Positions 22,169 through 55,458 of a DNA stretch of 57,052 bases are shown in pieces. Within the stretch, counting starts at the first letter, position 1. The number at the start of each line of letters is the position of its first letter. The translations under genes and the position numbers were made by a program. Location of the stretch: IMG/VR virus record IMGVR_UViG_3300045988_165774, positions 1-57,052 of that record; one strand, written 5' to 3'. The notes below the pieces were generated by a model. The model was not told the DNA's origin. It saw only the letters and a program-made list of their open reading frames with translations, and did no database searches. Origin of the DNA: a virus.

Positions 22169-23422
22169 TTATTCCCCGATATTATAAATTACATAGTCTA
22201 TTACCTTCCTATTTGCTTCGTCTACTTGTGTGTAGTCATATTCACGGTATTTCTCAATCATTAATCCAGTAACTGAATGCATTAATCCTTTGTCTATTGT
22301 GGAATCCGGTATTCTTAATTGTCCTGCAATTGTTGCCCATGAATGTCTGGCATAGGTAAAACTAAAATGAGGGATTTTATCTTTTTCATTTTTAATATTC
22401 CTATTCATTTCTTCTATGTCCGATTTTATCCTGTCATCGATAAAGTGTGTTAGCTGTTTGTGGTTTTTGTATTTAGTTTTAATCATTCTTATTTTATTTG
22501 GATCAGCATACTTTTTAATTATTTCTAATATTTCAGGTTGCAATTTTAACTTTAGACGTACCTCTCTTGCTGTACGTGCTGTTTTTAGACGACTAATATC
22601 TATATAATTTTCAAAGTAAGGTAAATAGAAAATATCCTTCATATTCATTCCACATAGAAAGAAGGATAAAAAGAAGAAATCACGTCCAATCCCAGGGCGT
22701 TGATAGAATTTTCGTAAGACTTCTATGTCAAGTTTTCTTATCTTTGCTTTATAATCCGATGGAATTGAAATGGCATCAAATGGGTAAAGATCCCGGCTTA
22801 TTACCTTTTGTCCAATTGCCACCTTAAAAACTCTTCGGATACAACGGAGATATTTTGTAAACGACACTTCTTTCTTATTTGTTCCTTTAAGAAAGAATTT
22901 TTTTAATTCTATAAGAGTATAGCTATCTATGTTCTGAAAGTAAATTTTATCAGTTTTAAAGAACTTTATTAATAAATTTTTGGTCCATCTGAATGTATCT
23001 GCGTACGCCTTTCTTTTCATTTCTTCAGTAACCTCTTCGGATTCAAGGTCAAATATAATTTTATCAATGGTTCTTATAAAATCTGTTGATTGTTCGACTG
23101 GTTTCCCTAAATTCAATCTTATTCTGTCATAAGACATGAAAATTTGCTTTAAGGTCATGACTGACATATCCTTAACGGATTCTCCCAATTCTTTATAATA
23201 ATCCTGATATCTGCCTTTTTGAGCAAATAAATCTGAGTTCCATTTCGCTGCCTCTGGAAATTCTTTCTTTATAATTCCATTCCCCTGATCAAAAAAACTG
23301 GGCTCAATATAGTAGTTAGTCGGAATAAAAGTAGGATTTTCCCCCTTTTTCTTAATCTTAATTTTAATGTTTCCTTTTCCTGTCTTTCCTGAAACATCCC
23401 TTAGCACGACACTTAATTCCAT
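22169..23422 (-). CDS. int: Tyrosine recombinase / phage integrase, 417 aa
   Basis: C-terminal catalytic segments ARHSWAT, GLMHS and KYREYDY. Adjacent to a tRNA-fragment attP. Confidence 0.9.
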   Translation of the reverse strand: MELSVVLRDVSGKTGKGNIKIKIKKKGENPTFIPTNYYIEPSFFDQGNGIIKKEFPEAAKWNSDLFAQKGRYQDYYKELGESVKDMSVMTLKQIFMSYDRIRLNLGKPVEQSTDFIRTIDKIIFDLESEEVTEEMKRKAYADTFRWTKNLLIKFFKTDKIYFQNIDSYTLIELKKFFLKGTNKKEVSFTKYLRCIRRVFKVAIGQKVISRDLYPFDAISIPSDYKAKIRKLDIEVLRKFYQRPGIGRDFFFLSFFLCGMNMKDIFYLPYFENYIDISRLKTARTAREVRLKLKLQPEILEIIKKYADPNKIRMIKTKYKNHKQLTHFIDDRIKSDIEEMNRNIKNEKDKIPHFSFTYARHSWATIAGQLRIPDSTIDKGLMHSVTGLMIEKYREYDYTQVDEANRKVIDYVIYNIGE

Positions 23423-23603
23423 GATTTTTATATTTTTTTAACTATAAAATGAGCTAAAAATAGCTCTAAAACTCAATTTTGAACGTCATTTTTTATGAAT
23501 TGTTTCAAAAACACTGAAAAATTTCTACTAGATTTCTACTGGAATAACCCCTTTTTTAGCACAAAAGTGTGTTTTTTGTTACTTTTTACTTCGGATGTAA
23601 GGA

Positions 23604-23637
23604 ACAAAAAAAGGAGTTAGATTATATCTAACTCCTT
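23604..23637 (-). terminator. Intrinsic terminator just 3' of the tRNA-Leu fragment
   Basis: AAGGAGTTAGAT-ATA-ATCTAACTCCTT hairpin followed by TTTTTTT on the minus strand. Confidence 0.7.
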
Positions 23638-23649
23638 AATTTTCAATTT

Positions 23650-23709
23650 GTACCCAGGGCGGGAATCGAACCCGCACGTCTGTTGAGGACACTGGATTTT
23701 GAGTCCAGT
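23650..23709 (-). tRNA. 3' portion of tRNA-Leu(CAA), from the anticodon arm to the discriminator; attP core, not a complete gene
   Basis: The reverse complement reads CTGGA-CTCAAAA-TCCAG, a long variable arm, GCGGG-TTCGATT-CCCGC and CCTGGGT-A. No D arm or 5' acceptor strand lies upstream. Confidence 0.8.
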
Positions 23710-23878
23710 TTTGTGATCTTCTTTTATAAATTGAAAATTAAGGAGTTGGATATATTTTTAGTAGAAATTTCTACTGGTTTTCTACTGGTTTAACATTTCC
23801 GTCTAAGCCACTACCTGATTCTATTGTTATATTTTCTTTTTCGGTCATTTTGCCTGATTTTTGGCTTATATTTAAGTA

Positions 23879-26710: not shown

Positions 26711-26783
26711 GCCTACTTAGCTCAGTTGGTAGAGCATCGGTTTTGTACTCCGAAGGTCATCCGTTCGAACCGGACAGTAGGCT
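26711..26783 (+). tRNA. tRNA-Thr (anticodon TGT), 73 nt, CCA not encoded
   Basis: Hand fold: GCCTACT / TA / GCTC-AGTTGGTA-GAGC / A / TCGGT-TTTGTAC-TCCGA / AGGTC / ATCCG-TTCGAAC-CGGAC / AGTAGGC / T. Mismatches at 31-39 (U-U) and 49-65 (A-C). Confidence 0.75.
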
Positions 26784-26885
26784 CAAAAGTAAGGCCGTTT
26801 AGTTTGATGACGTGACGGCCTTACAAAAAACTCCAAGCTCTTTGACATGTTGACAGACAATAAAAAACACGCAGTTTGTCGCTGC

Positions 26886-36671: not shown

Positions 36672-36702
36672 TTTGCAATTATGGATAATAGCCGTATATT
36701 TG
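36672..36702 (+). promoter_or_regulatory. Promoter of cassette 1 (TTTG-N19-TATATTTG)
   Basis: Exact consensus boxes at 36672-75 and 36695-702. Confidence 0.6.
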
Positions 36703-36712
36703 TGGTGTTCAA

Positions 36713-36888
36713 CTGCCAAGACGAACAACATAAATTACGTTAGAAGGGTGTTTTTATGCCCTATTATTTCTTGAATTTTCAAGTAAAATATAGGCCGTCG
36801 AAATTCCTTCGTTGCATAGCCCTTCATCGTAAGTGTTATGTTCGTCTTGGCAGATAACGGGAAAGTCGGCGGCTTTCTTATTTTTATC
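36713..36888 (+). promoter_or_regulatory. Structured leader RNA of cassette 1 (long-range helix plus terminator-like helix)
   Basis: 36713-27 pairs with 36839-53 (15 bp). 36794-801 pairs with 36866-73 and is followed by a T-rich tract. The 12-mer TGCCAAGACGAA is repeated at the start codon (36911-22). Confidence 0.6.
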
Positions 36889-36909
36889 AACTTATAATTC
36901 ATCAACGTA

Positions 36910-37206
36910 ATGCCAAGACGAAGTGAATCTGTAAGTAATGTGAATCATAGTACCATTACAGCACGTCCACCCCGACGAAATGAGGGTCAATTACTTTCTC
37001 AGATAAAAGAGTTGCAAGCACAACTAAATCAAGTAAGACAAAAATTTGAAATCGAAAAGAGCTGCAAGAATAAAGCCTATTACTTTATTCTCAGTTCCGG
37101 AAACTTTCAAAAATTCGCGGAGTTTCATAAAAAGCATAGGGCAAATCTCGACTATCACGGGGCTTGCCTCGCGCAGCTTTATCTTGATTCATTTACTACA
37201 AAATAA
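36910..37206 (+). CDS. Small basic/coiled-coil protein with a conserved Cys/His C-terminal domain, 98 aa (family member 1)
   Basis: RPPRRNEG motif, heptad region, then CKNKAYYFILSSGNFQKFAEFHKKHRANLDYHGACLAQLYLDSFTTK. Paralogs at 44614 and 54062. Confidence 0.7.
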   Translation: MPRRSESVSNVNHSTITARPPRRNEGQLLSQIKELQAQLNQVRQKFEIEKSCKNKAYYFILSSGNFQKFAEFHKKHRANLDYHGACLAQLYLDSFTTK

Positions 37207-37213
37207 CCCTACC

Positions 37214-37939
37214 ATGAAAGAATTAGTTTTAAATTCTAATGGTCAACCTGTGACCAATAGTGTACTTGTTGCCGAAAAATTTGGCAAACAACACAAAAAC
37301 GTAATTGCCTCAATAAGAGCAATTATTGAACAAGCTGAAAATTCAGCCCGTCAAATGTTTGTTGAAAGTCAGTATGTTGACAACAAAGGCGAATCACGAC
37401 CAATGTTTATAATGAATCGTGACGGCTTTACCCTTTTAGCAATGGGATTCACCGGAAAGGAAGCATTGCAATTTAAGCTTGAATTTATCAATGCTTTCAA
37501 TAAAATGGAAAAACAGTTAAAGGAACAAAGCAATCTTTCCCCGGCTGAAATGCTTCTCAAACAATGTCAGATCATGGTAGAACATGAAAAGAGATTGTCA
37601 ACCGTTGAGCAGAAAGTTAATGAGGTATTAGCTATTCGGGAAGAAGCGCAGAAAGACATGTTATCACTCCCTCTTTCTACTGATGCTGTTCCTGAATTAA
37701 GCATGAGAGATAAAGTCCGTGCTTTGGTAAACAAATATTCCATGCACTTCAATGTTCCTCAAAAGAATGTGTGGGACCATATTTACCAAACCCTTTATTA
37801 CAATTATCATATTGCACTGCGTTCCTACGCCAGAAAGAAAAATGAGAGTCTTATTGATGTAGCTGAACGTGTAGGCGCATTGGATAAAATGTACGCAATT
37901 ATTTCAAACCTATCAAGGCAAAACGGATTAGTAGCATAA
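37214..37939 (+). CDS. Rha-family phage regulatory protein, 241 aa (ATG at 37214)
   Basis: N-terminus VTNSVLVAEKFGKQHKNVIASIRAII matches the Phage_pRha pattern. The longer track ORF (37046) overlaps the previous gene out of frame. Confidence 0.75.
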   Translation: MKELVLNSNGQPVTNSVLVAEKFGKQHKNVIASIRAIIEQAENSARQMFVESQYVDNKGESRPMFIMNRDGFTLLAMGFTGKEALQFKLEFINAFNKMEKQLKEQSNLSPAEMLLKQCQIMVEHEKRLSTVEQKVNEVLAIREEAQKDMLSLPLSTDAVPELSMRDKVRALVNKYSMHFNVPQKNVWDHIYQTLYYNYHIALRSYARKKNESLIDVAERVGALDKMYAIISNLSRQNGLVA

Positions 37940-44380: not shown

Positions 44381-44411
44381 TTTGATTTGTCGGAAAAATG
44401 CCGTATGTTTG
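44381..44411 (+). promoter_or_regulatory. Promoter of cassette 2 (TTTG-N19-TATGTTTG)
   Basis: Boxes at 44381-84 and 44404-11. Confidence 0.6.
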
Positions 44412-44422
44412 CTTTCGATTCA

Positions 44423-44592
44423 GACCAAGAATCTTTTAGTGTAATTGAAAGTGCAGCATTTTTTTATGCTGTTATGTGATGTATCTTATCTAAGAAAATA
44501 AGCTACTCAAATCCCTGCGGATTGCTGTGCTTTACTGTACACAATTGATTCTTGGTCGAATTAGGGAGGCGAGTAGCTTTCTTTATTTTATT
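44423..44592 (+). promoter_or_regulatory. Structured leader RNA of cassette 2
   Basis: GACCAAGAATC 44423-33 pairs with GATTCTTGGTC 44547-57. AGCTACTC 44501-08 pairs with GAGTAGCT 44571-78 and is followed by a T-rich tract. The 11-mer recurs at 44616-26 over the start region. Confidence 0.6.
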
Positions 44593-44613
44593 AATTTCAA
44601 ATTTCATACGCGA

Positions 44614-44961
44614 ATGACCAAGAATCGTGAAAATTTGAAAGCTGCTATCAGTGTAGCATCTATTCAACGTCCACCCCGACGAAACGAGGGTAAACTACTG
44701 CAATTAGAGCGTGAAATCAAGACGCTCAAATCCGAAAACCAGGAATTAAAAACGGAACTGGCTGAACAGAAAAGGCAGAACATTCTGGAAAAGCAGAAGA
44801 AAGAGGAAGAAAAACGGTGTAAGAATCGAGCCTATTACTTTATCCTAAGCGATGGTGCTTTCCAAAGGTTTGCCGAGTTCCATAAAACACACCGGGCAAA
44901 TCTCGACTATCATGGGGCTTGTCTGGCGCAGCTTTATCTTGATTCATTTACTACAAAATAA
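44614..44961 (+). CDS. Small basic/coiled-coil Cys/His protein, 115 aa (family member 2; ATG at 44614)
   Basis: RPPRRNEG, coiled coil, then CKNRAYYFILSDGAFQRFAEFHKTHRANLDYHGACLAQLYLDSFTTK. The GTG-started track extension covers the leader. Confidence 0.7.
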   Translation: MTKNRENLKAAISVASIQRPPRRNEGKLLQLEREIKTLKSENQELKTELAEQKRQNILEKQKKEEEKRCKNRAYYFILSDGAFQRFAEFHKTHRANLDYHGACLAQLYLDSFTTK

Positions 44962-44967
44962 CTTACC

Positions 44968-45738
44968 ATGAAAGAATTAGTTTTATTTGACAAAACTCAA
45001 AATAGTATTTTGGGTAATGTCAGATCGGACGGCGACATGCTTAGTCTGACAGATTTATGGAAAGCGGCTAATAGCCCAAATAAAAAAGACCCATCTACAT
45101 GGCAACGCCGTGAATCAACAATTGAACTTATTGATACAGTGTGCAATTTTTTAAATACCCTCAAAATGGGGGTTTTGAAATCTAAGCGAGGGAAATCAGA
45201 TGGAGGGACATGGGCGCATAAAAATTTAGCACTTGCTTATGCAAAATGGTTGGATCCCAAACTCCATATTCTAATAAACGAGGTTTTCTTCCAGCGTATC
45301 GAAGAAGAAAAAAATCCCGACCTTATAGCAGATCGGTACATTAAAGCCTACAAAAAGAGAGGTAAGGATGAAAAATGGATTCAAGAACGTTTTGAAGGGA
45401 AAGTAGTACGTAATACATTTACTTCTACTCTTGCAAAACATGGTGTAAAACATGATGGTTTCCGGCAATGTACGAATGCGATTTACTCCCCTTTATTTGG
45501 CGGTAAAACTGATGTAATCAGACAAAAGAAAAACTTACCGGAGAAAGCTAATATCCGTGATAATCTTTCCCGGCTTGAACTTATGTCAGTGAAATTTGCT
45601 GAAGAATTGGCTTCGGAAAATATTAAGAACAATAATCTACAAGGCAACAATGAATGTGCAAAAGCAAGTTTTATTGCTTCAAACGCGGTAAAAGATTGTG
45701 TTTTAAAAAGCAGACAGAAAATAAATCAAACAATATAA
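44968..45738 (+). CDS. KilA-N domain DNA-binding protein, 256 aa
   Basis: LSLTDLWKAANSP ... GGTWAHKNLALAYAKWLDPKLHILINEVF. Confidence 0.7.
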   Translation: MKELVLFDKTQNSILGNVRSDGDMLSLTDLWKAANSPNKKDPSTWQRRESTIELIDTVCNFLNTLKMGVLKSKRGKSDGGTWAHKNLALAYAKWLDPKLHILINEVFFQRIEEEKNPDLIADRYIKAYKKRGKDEKWIQERFEGKVVRNTFTSTLAKHGVKHDGFRQCTNAIYSPLFGGKTDVIRQKKNLPEKANIRDNLSRLELMSVKFAEELASENIKNNNLQGNNECAKASFIASNAVKDCVLKSRQKINQTI

Positions 45739-48015: not shown

Positions 48016-48786
48016 TTACTTAGTTTGTTTCCTTCTAGGTGGTATTTTGGGAGACTTCATTCCGTCAATATGTTCAAATAGAGAGTTATCTACATGAGCC
48101 ATCATAGGATCCAAGATAAAATCAATGCCTTCCCTTCTCGCTAATTTAGATGCTGGAACAAAATCAGCATCACCAGATATAAGTACAATTCTATCAACAA
48201 AATGCTTTAATGATAAAGAAGCAATATCTACCCCTATCTTCATATCTATACTTTTTTGCCTTAATTCGTAATAAACATCACTTTCTTGTAAGTCCTCTAT
48301 TTTCAATGAACCAGATAATAATTCCTTTATTTTATTTGGTCTTATTTGCCAATTGCCAGAATCCTTAAGATATCCTAGTCTAAGTGCAACTTTTCTTTTT
48401 TGTTTTAAGGCTTCAAATATTTTATTCCTAAATATAGCTTCAGGACTTCTCTCAAAAACAATACATTTTTTAGAAATAGGATTATGAACTCTTTTTGAAA
48501 AAGGTACACAGTCGTAGAAAAATATACGATAAAGATAATTTTCTTTCCCAACATGTGAATGAGCTAATGTATAAATGTCATCAGCAACTTCCTCAGGAGT
48601 TTTGTTTTTTCCCTTATTATATAAATAATTATATCTTTTAATAAAAAATCCTCCGTCTATTAGAACAGCTATTTTGACTGGTGCACTAAAATTAGATTCT
48701 GGCTTATTGTTTGATTTCATATCATTATAAAAAACAAAGGCTCTTGGGTCGGCATGCTCATTATTAAACCAAAATTGGTAGAACAT
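48016..48786 (-). CDS. NYN/LabA-like (PIN-fold) RNase domain protein, 256 aa
   Basis: KIAVLIDGGFF ... RIVLISGDADFVPASKLARREGIDF pattern. Isolated AT-rich minus-strand gene. Confidence 0.65.
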   Translation of the reverse strand: MFYQFWFNNEHADPRAFVFYNDMKSNNKPESNFSAPVKIAVLIDGGFFIKRYNYLYNKGKNKTPEEVADDIYTLAHSHVGKENYLYRIFFYDCVPFSKRVHNPISKKCIVFERSPEAIFRNKIFEALKQKRKVALRLGYLKDSGNWQIRPNKIKELLSGSLKIEDLQESDVYYELRQKSIDMKIGVDIASLSLKHFVDRIVLISGDADFVPASKLARREGIDFILDPMMAHVDNSLFEHIDGMKSPKIPPRRKQTK

Positions 48787-52659: not shown

Positions 52660-53688
52660 TTAACCCCAAAAGCCATTACCGGCAGCATAAGGATTAAAAC
52701 CACCATACAAGCCGTATTGGTATGCCACACAGTTGGGAACTGCCGCAATAGGACTGTAAGGCACAGTCACAGTTTCCGGCTGCTTGCATTCAATCTTGGC
52801 AAGGCGTGCGCTTAAATCTGTCAAAGCGGCTCCAAGAGGTGCGGTAGCCTGGCCTACAATTTGAGAAGTCATAGCTGAACTCTTGTAAGTGCTGTTTTCT
52901 TCACGGAGCTTGTCAATTTTGTTCTGCATCTCACGCATTTCGGCAGCACGTTGGCCGGCAATAATCTGCTGTGTGCTTTCCTTGATGGAATTTTGCAAGT
53001 CACAGGTCTGACGTTGTGTCTCATAGGCCACGGATGCAAATCCTCTTTCCTGCCCGGTTGCAACACCATTAATTGCATTTTGCAGGGTGTTTGTCTGCTG
53101 ACAGATAGCCAGACGGTTCTCACAGCAGCATGATGCAATCTGTTGTGCAATCTGACAGTTACCGGATTGAATAGCGTTAATAATCTGCATAGAACTCTGC
53201 CCTACCTGATTTCCCACCTGTTGAATCTGTGACATTACACCATTGATAGCCTGCTGAACCTGACCGATTGAACAGTTCAGATTTGTTGCCAGATTGTTGA
53301 TAGCCTGACCGTTCCCTTGAATGGCACTCATTAGTAACTCCCTCCCTGTGTCGTTGTTAATCAGATTGGGGATTCCTGCTGCTCCATTGCCACCGCCAAA
53401 GCCACCATTTCCCCATCCGTTGTTACCCCAACCCATGAGGAAGAACAAGAAAATAACCCAAATAAACCATCCGCCTTCTCCACCGAATCCGTTATTATTA
53501 CGGCCTTGCATAGCTACAAGTAGGTTCGGATCGATCCCTTTTTGCTGAAGCAAAGGAGCCAACATGGCTAACATTCCACTTCCGCCTCCGTTCCCGCTTT
53601 CCGGGAAAACAAAAGTTTTTGATTCGCTCATTTTTATCGAATTTTGAATTACCCCGGCACCATTGCCGGATATCCCAAAATTCGACAT
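52660..53688 (-). CDS. Gly/Asn/Gln-rich protein with one TM helix and a Cys-containing coiled coil, 342 aa
   Basis: GGWFIWVIFLFFLMGWG hydrophobic segment flanked by GNGG repeats. QIASCCCENRLAICQQ. No family recognised. Confidence 0.6.
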   Translation of the reverse strand: MSNFGISGNGAGVIQNSIKMSESKTFVFPESGNGGGSGMLAMLAPLLQQKGIDPNLLVAMQGRNNNGFGGEGGWFIWVIFLFFLMGWGNNGWGNGGFGGGNGAAGIPNLINNDTGRELLMSAIQGNGQAINNLATNLNCSIGQVQQAINGVMSQIQQVGNQVGQSSMQIINAIQSGNCQIAQQIASCCCENRLAICQQTNTLQNAINGVATGQERGFASVAYETQRQTCDLQNSIKESTQQIIAGQRAAEMREMQNKIDKLREENSTYKSSAMTSQIVGQATAPLGAALTDLSARLAKIECKQPETVTVPYSPIAAVPNCVAYQYGLYGGFNPYAAGNGFWG

Positions 53689-53786
53689 AAATAGCTGCTT
53701 TATAAAAAGTTACATTCCTATACAATAGAAGTTTAAGGACTTAAAACAGAATAAATTTCCAATAAAAAAGAAAGTTTTATTTAGAT

Positions 53787-53819
53787 GTTGTGAATATCAA
53801 AAAATATTTCATACATTTG
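53787..53819 (+). promoter_or_regulatory. Promoter of cassette 3 (GTTG-N21-TACATTTG)
   Basis: -7 box at 53812-19. The -33 element is only TTG and the spacing is 21 nt. Confidence 0.45.
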
Positions 53820-53823
53820 TCTT

Positions 53824-54036
53824 GCTTAATCTTCTAATGACTGGCGGAGTAAGAGTACCCGCTGTATGGCGGTTTTTTTTATGCCTTATTGATTTGTATT
53901 TTCCATACTTTGTATTTTGTTGTTTGGAAAGGAAAATATTTGTCTAACGGCGTATACCCCCGTAAATCTGTTGTAATGGCAGATTTTAGCCAGTCATGAG
54001 GTGATTAAGCAGCGGGAAAGGTACGCCGTTTTTCTG
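53824..54036 (+). promoter_or_regulatory. Structured leader RNA of cassette 3
   Basis: GCTTAATC 53824-31 plus ATGACTGGC 53837-45 pair with GCCAGTCAT 53989-97 plus GATTAAGC 54003-10. AACGGCGTA 53946-54 pairs with TACGCCGTT 54022-30 and is followed by TTTT. Small hairpin CCGCT-GTAT-GGCGG plus T8 at 53859-80. Confidence 0.55.
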
Positions 54037-54061
54037 TACCTAAGTGCTTAATAAATATATC

Positions 54062-54349
54062 ATGACAAACACAAATCAAACCACCAACCATGGGAAAGGC
54101 ACAGACAATGTGCGTCACACTCACGAAACGGGCGAAATCTTATCACTAAAGCAGCAGCTTGAAACCTACAAAAGGCTGTTTGAAATCGAAAAGAATTGTA
54201 AGAATCAGGCTTATTTCTTCATTCTTTCATGCGGACATTTTGAGGAATACCGCGGATATTGCAAAACGCATCCTACAAATGTAGATTATCATTCTGCGTG
54301 TGTGGATGTTTTCAGACTTCAACATTTAAAAAGAGAAAACCATGAATGA
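54062..54349 (+). CDS. Small coiled-coil Cys/His protein, 95 aa (family member 3; ATG at 54062)
   Basis: CKNQAYFFILSCGHFEEYRGYCKTHPTNVDYHSACVDVF aligns with the C-terminal domain of the 36910 and 44614 proteins. Confidence 0.65.
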   Translation: MTNTNQTTNHGKGTDNVRHTHETGEILSLKQQLETYKRLFEIEKNCKNQAYFFILSCGHFEEYRGYCKTHPTNVDYHSACVDVFRLQHLKRENHE

Positions 54350-54962
54350 GTTGATTAAGATTGTGGAGAATGACGGTAAGAAAGCCGTTTCTGCACGGGA
54401 GCTTTACGAAAAATTAGGGTTTGCGCCTCAGCATTGGGCTAATTGGTATAAAAAGAATATTACTAATAATTCTTTTGCTGTTGAAAATGAAGATTATGCA
54501 CAACTCCCACTAAGTGGGAGAACAATTGATTTTGCCCTCTCTATCGACTTTGCTAAACGCCTTTCCATGATGGCACGTACCGAAACCGGTGAACAAATAC
54601 GTAATTATTTTATCGAAATAGAAAAACGTGCAACCAAACCATTAAGTCAGCTTGACATTTTAGCTCAGTCAATCCAAATCCTGCAAGCACAGGAAAAACG
54701 TATTTCAGAGATAGATGATCGAGTTAAAGTTATTGAGGCAAAACAGACTACACACCAAAACTGGTTTACCATTGCCGGATATGGAACACTTCTTAAAATA
54801 CAGGTCGGAATAAAACTGGCAGCAAGTTTGGGAAGGAAGGCATGTAATCTTTGCAGACAACTTGGCATTGAACCGGAGGAAATACCAGATCCGCGATTCG
54901 GGAAAGTCAAAACCTATCCCGAAAATGTTTTAAAGCAGGTATTTGATATGCCAATTAACTAA
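54342..54962 (+). CDS. AntA/AntB-type phage antirepressor-like DNA-binding protein, 206 aa
   Basis: VSARELYEKLGFAPQHWANWYKKNI ... FAVENEDYA ... DFALSIDFAKRLSMM pattern. Confidence 0.7.
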   Translation: MNELIKIVENDGKKAVSARELYEKLGFAPQHWANWYKKNITNNSFAVENEDYAQLPLSGRTIDFALSIDFAKRLSMMARTETGEQIRNYFIEIEKRATKPLSQLDILAQSIQILQAQEKRISEIDDRVKVIEAKQTTHQNWFTIAGYGTLLKIQVGIKLAASLGRKACNLCRQLGIEPEEIPDPRFGKVKTYPENVLKQVFDMPIN

Positions 54963-54965
54963 AAT

Positions 54966-55027
54966 AAGGGCATCGGAGTAACTGCAAGCTCTCACATTAG
55001 GCAGTCATTCCTTTGCCCTTTCCTTTT
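54966..55027 (+). terminator. Terminator-like long hairpin after cassette 3
   Basis: AAGGGCA 54966-72 / TGCCCTT 55014-20 with inner ACTGC/GCAGT, followed by TCCTTTT. Confidence 0.45.
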
Positions 55028-55083
55028 AACTGCATTGACTTGTGATTTGGCCGTCCCAGTCTTTGCAAAAAACATTCAAAGAT

Positions 55084-55458
55084 ATGAAAACAATACAATT
55101 AACAAAACAAAGTAGCGAAAATGAAGTTAAAGATTATTTCAAGGCTGTTCTAAAGTTAGCAAAATCAAAAGAAGAATTTCCGGTAAACTTGGAAGATGTT
55201 TGGCCATTGGTTTACACAAAGAAATCCGACGCAGTTGAGGCATTAAGAAGAGATTTTATTGAGAAGGAAGATTTCGTATCGCTCCGGCAAAATCCGCAAC
55301 CTGATTCTCAATGGATTAACCCAAATCCTAAAATAGACTATTTTATTTCAGTATCATGTCTTGAATATATATTCACTCTTCTTTTTCGCGGTGATTTAGT
55401 ATGTCAGCAATTGTCTTGTGACACAGCCCGGTCTGTTCCTTTATTTTATCATATATGA
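55084..55458 (+). CDS. Hypothetical protein, 124 aa (ATG at 55084); 3' end overlaps a convergent ORF
   Basis: N-terminal two thirds look protein-like (EEFPVNLEDVWPLVYTKKSDAVEALRRDF). The last roughly 30 aa are antisense to 55373..55576. Confidence 0.4.
   Translation: MKTIQLTKQSSENEVKDYFKAVLKLAKSKEEFPVNLEDVWPLVYTKKSDAVEALRRDFIEKEDFVSLRQNPQPDSQWINPNPKIDYFISVSCLEYIFTLLFRGDLVCQQLSCDTARSVPLFYHI

Follow-up and report, generated by a model that had tools for sequence, protein, structure and literature searches.

Antirepressor-like genes of the Bro, KilA, Ant and Rha types are the usual triggers of prophage induction. To our knowledge, almost nothing is known about the decision between lysogeny and lytic growth in temperate phages of the dominant gut Bacteroidota. 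The phage analysed here is a temperate gut phage of the Bacteroidota type, the IMG/VR record IMGVR_UViG_3300045988_165774, whose whole stretch of 57,052 nucleotides (nt) is called the window below. The element under study is the leader RNA of cassette 3 (C3), one of three cassettes in this window, which precedes a small open reading frame (ORF) and an AntA-type antirepressor-like gene.

The closest described systems come from enterobacterial phages. The immI locus of P1 and P7 comprises the c4 antisense RNA, icd and ant (PMC12197685, PMC8201110), and c4 and c4-a1b1 motifs have been described (PMC2864571); a small ORF precedes the antirepressor gene and is required for its expression (PMC12197685, PMC8201110, PMC2864571). 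The immunity region of P4, with the order seqA, CI RNA (seqB) and seqC, works by antisense-RNA-dependent premature termination: a leader segment is complementary to one upstream and one downstream site, the pairing decides premature termination, and the regulator is made from the very leader that it controls (PMC4825925). In the isrK locus of Gifsy-1 in Salmonella, the IsrK small RNA (sRNA) is followed by orf45/STnc1160 and the antirepressor gene anrP (PMC4825925). Its order is promoter, short 5' RNA with a partly read-through Rho-independent terminator, small ORF and overlapping antirepressor start; a segment of the 5' RNA is complementary to a downstream part of its own transcript, and alternative structures set the accessibility of the small-ORF start (PMC4825925). 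In all these systems the leader RNA acts in trans, and differences between the boxes give heteroimmunity (PMC4825925, PMC12197685, PMC8201110, PMC2864571).

C3 has the same general layout. A structured RNA bearing the antisense boxes (segment A, the anti-start segment) has complementary boxes on both sides, one set upstream (segment M, a mimic of the start region) and one downstream over the translation start (segment S); the coordinates are collected in Table 1. In P1/P7, bipartite boxes likewise occur three times per transcript, that is, upstream, in the structured RNA and over the ribosome binding site of the small ORF, and C3 has this bipartite a/b arrangement. The details of the a1/b1, a'/b' and a2/b2 boxes of P1/P7 were reportedly given by Citron and Schuster in 1990. 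Box differences give heteroimmunity in P1/P7, and related C3-type cassettes also differ in their boxes. As in P4, the leader segment A is complementary to one upstream and one downstream site. The parts of the isrK locus are found in the same order too, with M and an early terminator-like hairpin (T1) in the position of the short 5' RNA, followed by the small ORF and the AntA gene, whose start overlaps the small-ORF stop (ATGAATGA). In the other two cassettes (C1 and C2) a gap of 6-7 nt separates the small ORF from the antirepressor-like gene, and coupling is predicted from this gene spacing. With moderate confidence, we read 53812-54066 as the promoter and leader RNA switch of the small ORF/AntA operon, likely an RNA lock on antirepressor expression.

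The preliminary description of this DNA had proposed a transcribed, structured 5' leader with a bipartite long-range helix downstream of a -7 box, and a reading of 53400-55200 found all of its elements where it had placed them. A repeat search returned one inverted repeat (53823-45/53989-54011) with arms of 23 nt, 87% complementarity and 143 nt between the arms, which is the third longest within 300 nt in the 57-kb window. In it, GCTTAATC (53824-31) and ATGACTGGC (53837-45) are complementary to GCCAGTCAT (53989-97) and GATTAAGC (54003-10). The RNA from 53820 to 54070 folds at -72.4 kcal/mol (z = -3.9), which none of 200 shuffles equals. The M:A duplex reaches -31.6 to -31.9 kcal/mol, and none of 2457 other genome windows pairs equally well with A; M is essentially unstructured in the nascent RNA according to the folding. 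Concerning the start region, TGCTTAAT (53823-30) is repeated exactly at 54045-52, and GTCATGA (53993-99) in A pairs with TCATGAC (54060-66).

Relatives were collected by protein-guided scans of IMG/VR and metagenomes, which gave about 130 loci (L numbers below). Some 12 cassette types of distinct sequence have a direct copy of the opening 8-12 nt of the ORF about 190 nt upstream (M, right after the promoter box) and the reverse complement of these nucleotides about 67 nt upstream (A). The near-identical copies of C3 show no substitution in 53812-54070 and, the length of a T run aside, all their differences are upstream of the promoter (53700-53780). A more divergent relative, L022 (2739-3008), carries a C3-type leader (79% identity) before an unrelated 89-aa ORF starting MTNINH, followed by an AntA homologue with 81% identity, and from this unrelated small ORF it follows that leader and cargo ORF are exchangeable. 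In fact, promoter-upstream DNA, leader and ORF have been swapped independently among contigs: L060 and L009 are 98.7% identical upstream, yet they have different leaders and unrelated ORFs. This independent recombination agrees with the earlier view of the cassette as an autonomous module.

A larger family was found with a degenerate pattern (CCCCGT-N30-55-CARCGGG-N6-16-CCGTTTTT), which matched at least 115 further IMG/VR loci. A covariance model (R1) of the domain closed by helix H3, described below, was built from the C3 subfamily (L022, L013, L078, L009 and L060/L124), and it recognised 92 places in 100 of the matches listed at E < 0.001, with at least 70 distinct sequences. The family values given from here on refer to the matches listed. 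An upstream M with an M:A energy of -20 kcal/mol or lower is present in 80 of the 84 unique loci (median -34.8 kcal/mol). Since M:A, the promoter box, A:S, the position of the ATG and a further hairpin, H5, were outside the search pattern, they represent an independent validation of the architecture. The genes behind the leaders encode Bro-N (22 of 91 first ORFs), KilA-N, AntA, Rha and KilA-N+KilAC proteins, and the antirepressor-like gene either follows the leader immediately or is separated from it by a small ORF. Two H3-domain RNAs stand in tandem, about 240-540 nt apart, in L150 (7090-7184 and 7330-7423) and also in L162, L152 and L228.

Regarding known RNA families, an Rfam cmscan of the whole window at gathering thresholds returned tRNA only, as did Rfam on twelve family loci, and the search of 53700-54150 at E up to 10 gave nothing beyond noise (RsaOG, E = 3.2; int-alpA, E = 9.5). 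Membership in a known RNA family was consequently rejected for the window, the C3 leader and the family loci. Neither the leader nor the small protein matched any cultured phage in INPHARED, and a search of genome contigs for cultured relatives found nothing. The leader is a new RNA family in a new phylum, absent from Rfam and without a cultured representative.

The conservation of the promoter and of the M:A helix could be followed across these relatives. Bacteroides primary-sigma promoters have the consensus TAnnTTTG at -7 and TTTG at -33, about 19-21 bp upstream. The -7 box of C3 was confirmed, its -33 region contains only GTTG (53787-90), and single TAnnTTTG boxes occur at chance frequency (61 in the window). 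The position of the box is what recurs: it lies at most 15 nt upstream of M in every cassette type collected via the small protein, and in 58 of the 84 unique family leaders, which supports a transcribed leader after a Bacteroides-type box. Judging from this spacing, the transcript would start at about 53823-26, with the first base of M. In L022, M:A is kept through four double changes, one in a1/a' and three in b1/b'. When A was paired with the M of each of 12 cassette types, the cognate M was the best in 12 of 12 rows (mean -33.8 kcal/mol vs -15.3 for non-cognate pairs), and in the large family the cognate mean was -33.4 vs -19.8 kcal/mol, the cognate M being the best of 26 in 53 of 66 leaders. 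The duplex is longer, 35-45 nt, in subfamilies I and II, where it reaches -41 to -49 kcal/mol. M:A is the core of a conserved leader RNA and no chance repeat, as the proposal of a bipartite helix had anticipated.

The start region follows the same code. In L022, a1, a' and a2 are changed in step (in a2, T to C, A to G and T to C), and M, A and S change together across relatives. Among the 12 cassette types, A pairs best with the cognate S in 9 of 12 rows (mean -21.1 vs -12.5 kcal/mol); in the family the cognate mean is -20.1 vs -13.6 kcal/mol (p = 5e-22), and in 55 of 60 leaders the duplex covers the ATG of the first ORF. From the U run after H3 to the first ATG there are 28-35 nt. The preliminary description had considered start-codon mimicry weak in this copy, having overlooked the box at 54045-52, and this judgement is not maintained given the family-wide A:S pairing. 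Another complementarity, between the leader interior and codons 1-6 (53889-53906/54062-54079, 18 nt, 83%, UUGAUUUGU with ACAAAUCAA), is absent in L022 and is probably due to chance.

A second long helix, H3, closes around A. All nine positions of AACGGCGTA (53946-54) pair with TACGCCGTT (54022-30). The 5' arm lies within the M:A loop and the 3' arm outside it, so that the two helices cross and are mutually exclusive. The helix and the following TTTT had already been pointed out, and their importance is supported by covariation; the description of H3 as an enclosing helix does not hold, since it crosses M:A and competes with it. Six of seven H3 pairs show double changes, none of 500 shuffles reaches the covariation score, and M:A and H3 are thus both helices conserved in related phages by covariation, a test that had been set for them. 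In the C3 subfamily, H3 has a conserved ACGG...CCGU base and a variable distal part, G-U pairs occur in it and A-C pairs do not, and every subfamily III leader has at least 5 consecutive U after it. For an RNA ending at 54035, folding gives -67.0 kcal/mol with M:A formed and -57.4 kcal/mol with H3 formed, a difference of 9.6 kcal/mol in favour of M:A. A hairpin with a U run, together with an exclusive helix derived from upstream, is the arrangement of an intrinsic-terminator attenuator, and termination at H3 is predicted on this basis.

Furthermore, the H3 domain contains a hairpin (P4) with a conserved loop, and H5, which overlaps the 3' arm of H3, excludes it and is possible only in read-through RNA. 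In the family, H5 is more stable with cognate than with non-cognate arms (mean -8.9 vs -5.5 kcal/mol, p = 4e-17), and H3, H5 and P4 are each sequence-specific to their own leader in the C3 subfamily. Pair counting with R1, on alignments fitted to the model, gave 92% paired cells in the C3 subfamily, with double changes in 12 of 17 pairs, and 95% in the large family, with 233 cells changed on both sides; 0 of 500 shuffles reached the score in either set, and controls with slid partners gave 28-57% paired cells in both sets (28-50% in the large-family set). The inner stem that extends H3 shows a change from C-G to U-A in L060/L124 and is invariant in the large-family set, where the search pattern itself had fixed that stem.

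Two further loci concern these elements. In L108 (about 1211-1440, a C1-like cassette), a 9-nt deletion removes the 5' arm of H3 (GTCGTCGAA), and this locus is either a natural variant without H3 or a defective copy. L076 (about 590-870; subfamily II, contig of 1316 nt) has A, H3 and S, and neither M nor a -7 box could be recognised where they were expected.

At this point a DNA-level explanation has to be considered, in which the repeats are recombination or protein-binding sites, such as a Bacteroides inverton or operators. Inverted repeats of about 23 nt around some 143 bp beside a promoter do look like Bacteroides invertons, arm covariation is expected for DNA inverted repeats too, and the excess of G-U pairs over A-C mismatches in M:A is modest (24 vs 14). 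However, the inner segment has one orientation in 101 of 101 copies from many samples (none inverted), the promoter box is outside the repeats and not between them, the third, direct copy overlaps the start codon, and Pfam and PHROG searches found no recombinase among the neighbouring genes. Moreover, the arms are imperfect, bulged and up to 45 nt long, and H3, H5 and P4 covary with G-U and no A-C pairs and adjoin U runs on the coding strand only. The locus was rejected as a member of the Bacteroides invertons, and a DNA-level element is, in our opinion, very improbable and largely refuted.

Between M and H3, a U run is present in 54 of 66 family leaders. In C3 this run belongs to T1, the sole plus-strand terminator-like site in the leader itself according to a consensus scan, and its length is polymorphic, with T8 here (53873-53880) and T7 or T6 in otherwise identical contigs. 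T1 is predicted to terminate transcription, and the product would be a short RNA of some 55 nt that includes M. T1-like hairpins ending at the U run (-6 to -13 kcal/mol) are found in 20 of the 66 leaders, the alternative hairpin P2 is possible in 41, and both in 18; in C3, P2 is weak and only GGC (53868-70) can pair with GCC (53883-85). GGCGG at 53843-47 is present in the sequence, and its suggested role of pre-empting T1 finds no backing: the pairing is lost in L022, and the 20 members with T1-like hairpins give no signal (cognate -8.4 vs -7.0 kcal/mol). The conserved partner of the T1 3' arm is the downstream AUGCC-type arm, not GGCGG. A leader peptide or upstream ORF starting with the ATG at 53881 (MPY-stop) was also rejected, as L036 and L034 have ATA here and the peptides that upstream ORFs would encode, 3 to 33 aa long, are unrelated.

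The presence of a long helix at the beginning of the RNA could also be explained by processing or stability, M:A being a substrate of the RNase III type or a protective 5' structure that sets the 5' end of the mRNA, with no switching. M:A starts where the transcript is predicted to begin, the 35-45 nt of subfamilies I and II are long enough for RNase III, and the phage has an NYN-domain (RNase-like) protein. Such a stem leaves unexplained the A:S complementarity over the start codon in those 55 of 60 leaders, the conserved and exclusive H3 and H5 around the U run, and the recurrent T1-like terminators after M, and this explanation is considered improbable.

For the switch that we favour, the following operation is proposed. 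A would pair either with M, at the beginning of the same RNA, or with the start region (S). In the ON state, M:A would form and, by crossing H3, prevent its closure; RNA polymerase would clear the U tract at 54029-35, H5 would form, S would be accessible, and translation of the small ORF and of its coupled AntA gene would follow. In the OFF state, with M absent or occupied, H3 would close around A and the transcript would end at the U run, and in RNA that is read through A would pair with S and hide the AUG. As M:A is more stable than H3, the default state would be M:A, with read-through, H5 and a free start. When M was blocked in silico, the minimum free energy structure changed to H3 or to an A:S duplex burying the ATG in 12 of 12 leader types. 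T1, directly after M, may release a short RNA consisting of M and the terminator hairpin. By analogy with P4, P1 and Gifsy-1, what governs the availability of M would probably be a leader-derived RNA acting in trans, either this short M RNA or an H3-domain RNA exposing A.

The cis switch is well supported. That these leaders are in addition trans-acting, sequence-programmable RNA immunity locks, whose small RNA (M with T1, or the H3 domain exposing A) would choose between termination with masking and expression of antirepressor-type genes at every cognate copy in the cell, including those of superinfecting phages, is a tentative proposal that we regard as possible; trans action has been proven for IsrK, whereas for C3 it is put forward by analogy.

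All the structural evidence fits equally well with a purely cis-acting attenuator or translational switch, where a protein or kinetics decides on M:A and no RNA acts in trans. The candidates are the small Cys/His protein, the Ant-like protein, a host RNA-binding protein at the U-loop hairpin, Rho, or the kinetics of transcription and translation, and P2, with its U-rich loop and A-U closing pairs, could serve as a protein site in the 41 of 66 leaders where it is possible. The absence of additional targets of A in the genome and of stand-alone copies of M or A also agrees with it. On the other hand, the segment between M and A shows almost no conserved sequence and has a length of about 75 to 143 nt across subfamilies, a pattern not expected of a ligand aptamer and with little that one protein could recognise in all of them; no leader peptide, aptamer core, tRNA site or protein site was recognised there as a defined sensor. 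The small ORF is replaced in L022 and many family leaders directly precede a Bro or KilA gene, so autoregulation by the small protein cannot be general. The diversity of the specificity sequences and the three co-resident orthogonal cassettes are more easily explained by selection on trans specificity. We hold a switch of cis action alone to be possible and less likely than the RNA lock.

Several points weigh against the RNA lock or its trans part. H3 is an unusual terminator, a 9-bp stem around 67 partly structured nt, and the T1 stem has merely 5 bp. M:A always wins in cis, so that a purely cis reading predicts constitutive ON and an extra input must be assumed, and H5 and P2 form only after the U runs have been transcribed and cannot themselves prevent termination. 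The A:S duplex of C3 alone is marginal (-18.1 kcal/mol, equalled by 103 of 2457 random windows, 4%), and the support for A:S comes from covariation in relatives and not from its energy in C3. The G-U excess in M:A is not decisive, and the fitted alignments behind the pair counts and the inner stem fixed by the pattern call for caution as well. The transcription start, the 3' ends at 53880 and 54035 and any processing are predictions from sequence, the whole analysis being computational. Concerning the trans part, A has no standout extra targets elsewhere in the phage genome, no stand-alone copies of the C3 M or A were found in IMG/VR (the same 8 contigs hold both), and nothing yet demands trans action.

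Table 1. Features of cassette C3 and of the two other cassettes (positions in the window; arms and boxes as RNA or DNA letters)
Feature	Position	Strand	Details
-7 promoter box	53812..53819	+	TACATTTG (TAnnTTTG); read in sequence
M, 5'-terminal mimic of start region	53823..53845	+	a1 TGCTTAATC (53823-31), b1 ATGACTGGC (53837-45); pairs with A
T1 hairpin	53859..53880	+	CCGCU-GUAU-GGCGG + U8; terminator-like; kept in L022 (CCGCC-GAU-GGCGG, U7)
3' arm of family P2 hairpin	53881..53885	+	AUGCC; P2 re-pairs the T1 3' arm, leaving the U run looped
Lineage-specific inserted hairpin	53891..53945	+	UUUGUAUUUUCC...GGAAAAUAUUUG; predicted; only in C3 and L022; absent from L009, L060, L013
X, 5' arm of H3	53946..53954	+	AACGGCGUA; repeat search, covariation
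Inner stem, 5' strand	53959..53963	+	CCCGU; pairs with GCGGG 54012-16, extends H3
P4 hairpin	53964..53986	+	AAAUCUG/CAGAUUU, conserved loop UUGUAAUGG (family motif U-N-UAAUG); 5/5 pairs changed on both sides
A, anti-start segment	53989..54011	+	b' GCCAGUCAU (53989-97), a' GAUUAAGCA (54003-11); complementary to M and S; inside H3 domain
Inner stem, 3' strand	54012..54016	+	GCGGG; covariance model pair counts
H5 hairpin	54019..54041	+	AGGUAC (54019-24)/GUACCU (54036-41), U tract in loop; covaries in 6 leader types
X', 3' arm of H3, and U-rich tract (T2, second terminator-like site)	54022..54035	+	UACGCCGUU (54022-30); U run ends 54033, then CU
S, translation start region	54045..54066	+	a2 UGCUUAAU (54045-52), b2 UCAUGAC (54060-66) including AUG at 54062
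Small ORF	54062..54349	+	95 aa; motif CKNxAYFFIL...H...DYHxAC; paralogue of C1/C2 small ORFs
AntA-type antirepressor-like gene	54342..54962	+	PF08346 E = 3e-15; phrog_5817, phrog_373 anti-repressor
C3, promoter and leader	53812..54066	+	cassette under study; AntA gene, PF08346
C1 leader	36695..36909	+	box 36695-702, M core 36714-25, A core 36841-52, S 36911-22
C1 genes	36910..37206 (small ORF); ATG at 37214 (Rha-domain gene)	+	PF09669
C2 leader	44404..44613	+	box 44404-11, M core 44423-33, A core 44547-57, S 44616-26
C2 genes	44614..44961 (small ORF); 44968..45738 (KilA-N gene)	+	PF04383

The phage is temperate, with a tyrosine integrase at 22169-23422 (minus strand), and it is without a close cultured relative; the rest of its genome shows only distant similarity to temperate phages of Bacteroides and Phocaeicola. 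A scan of the whole window for a k-mer, its reverse complement and the k-mer again gave exactly three plus-strand cassettes, at about 36.7, 44.4 and 53.8 kb, where a shuffled genome would be expected to give about 0.65 in all. All three are built from a TAnnTTTG box followed by some 200-240 nt of leader, then the ORF for a small paralogous protein and an antirepressor-like gene, and their M/A/S codes are mutually orthogonal in the specificity matrices. An nhmmer profile of subfamilies I and II matches C1 and C2 and not C3 (E = 7), and R1 finds within the window only C3. As neither profile crosses over, sequence homology between C3 and C1/C2 was rejected; judged by their sequences, the three cassettes have a common architecture without detectable common sequence, in agreement with the earlier remark on equal topology and different sequence.

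The small protein of C3 matched nothing in Pfam, PHROG, NCBIfam or PDB, and an AlphaFold model built from the three paralogues had a pLDDT of 60.6, below use for a fold search. L050 (1180-1824) encodes 215 aa in which the small-protein domain (AKNKAYYFII...DYHGAC) is fused at the C-terminal end and the N-terminal part looks Ant/KilA-like by eye, with a cassette upstream at about 685-910 (code TGCCAAGAACAA). Downstream of the AntA gene and of a terminator-like hairpin (55000-17), a 124-aa plus-strand ORF (55084-55458), with no match in protein family searches, closes the small plus-strand island between two minus-strand blocks.

Elsewhere in the window, the NYN-domain (PIN-like RNase) protein is encoded at 48016-48786 on the minus strand (PF01936, E = 5e-10), and it is a candidate RNA-processing enzyme given the apparently RNA-based regulation in this phage. 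The intergenic region beside the integrase gene (23508-23781) contains nested long inverted repeats, with 30-nt arms at 23623-52/23725-54 (93%) and 23-nt arms at 23508-30/23759-81, which could be attP or a regulatory structure. A phage-encoded tRNA-Thr(UGU) is found at 26711-26784. In several related contigs (upstream flanks of L036 and L051), the cassette promoter lies directly 3' of an apparent tRNA gene end (GGTTCGATTCC...).

Returning to the described systems, C3 also departs from each of them. There is no sequence or Rfam relationship with the isrK locus, and host phylum and promoter type differ; the start is predicted to be free in the default fold of C3, whereas the default fold of IsrK is inactive, and C3, unlike isrK, has a separate anti-start segment inside the terminator domain. 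The alternative structures around the small-ORF start are common to both. Compared with P1/P7, no covariance-model match to RF01695 (C4 antisense RNA) was obtained for C3 even at E = 10. The c4 RNA has 77 nt and is processed by RNase P, whereas no processing signal is evident in C3; termination is Rho-dependent in P1, whereas C3 has built-in hairpins resembling intrinsic terminators, and P1 has one such operon, whereas this phage has three orthogonal ones. P4 controls replication genes and not an antirepressor, with no homology to C3, and pairing with seqA and seqC promotes termination there, whereas M:A in cis is predicted to prevent it. With classical attenuators and riboswitch platforms, C3 has in common a 5' leader with mutually exclusive helices placed about a U run, and a long P1-like helix whose 3' strand doubles as an anti-sequestor of the start site. 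In contrast to them, it has no conserved ligand-binding core, H5 and P2 are downstream of the U runs, the antiterminator uses the very 5' end of the RNA, and the paired sequences are hypervariable and copy-specific.

The logic of C3 is of a known kind, namely the control of antirepressor operons by a leader with tripartite complementarity. This logic parallels that of P1, P4 and Gifsy-1 without sequence relationship, and for this reason the analogy suggests that RNA control of antirepressors evolved more than once. In the Bacteroidota phages it takes the form of a widespread conserved RNA, with at least 70 distinct IMG/VR sequences placed specifically before antirepressor-like genes. The family represents a natural set of orthogonal RNA switches for Bacteroides and a marker of antirepressor modules in metagenomic phages. 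If the leaders do act in trans, their hypervariable M, A and S segments would be a heteroimmunity code of gut Bacteroidota phages, evolved independently of the enterobacterial c4, CI and IsrK RNAs, and this phage would have three orthogonal channels, for its Rha, KilA-N and AntA genes.

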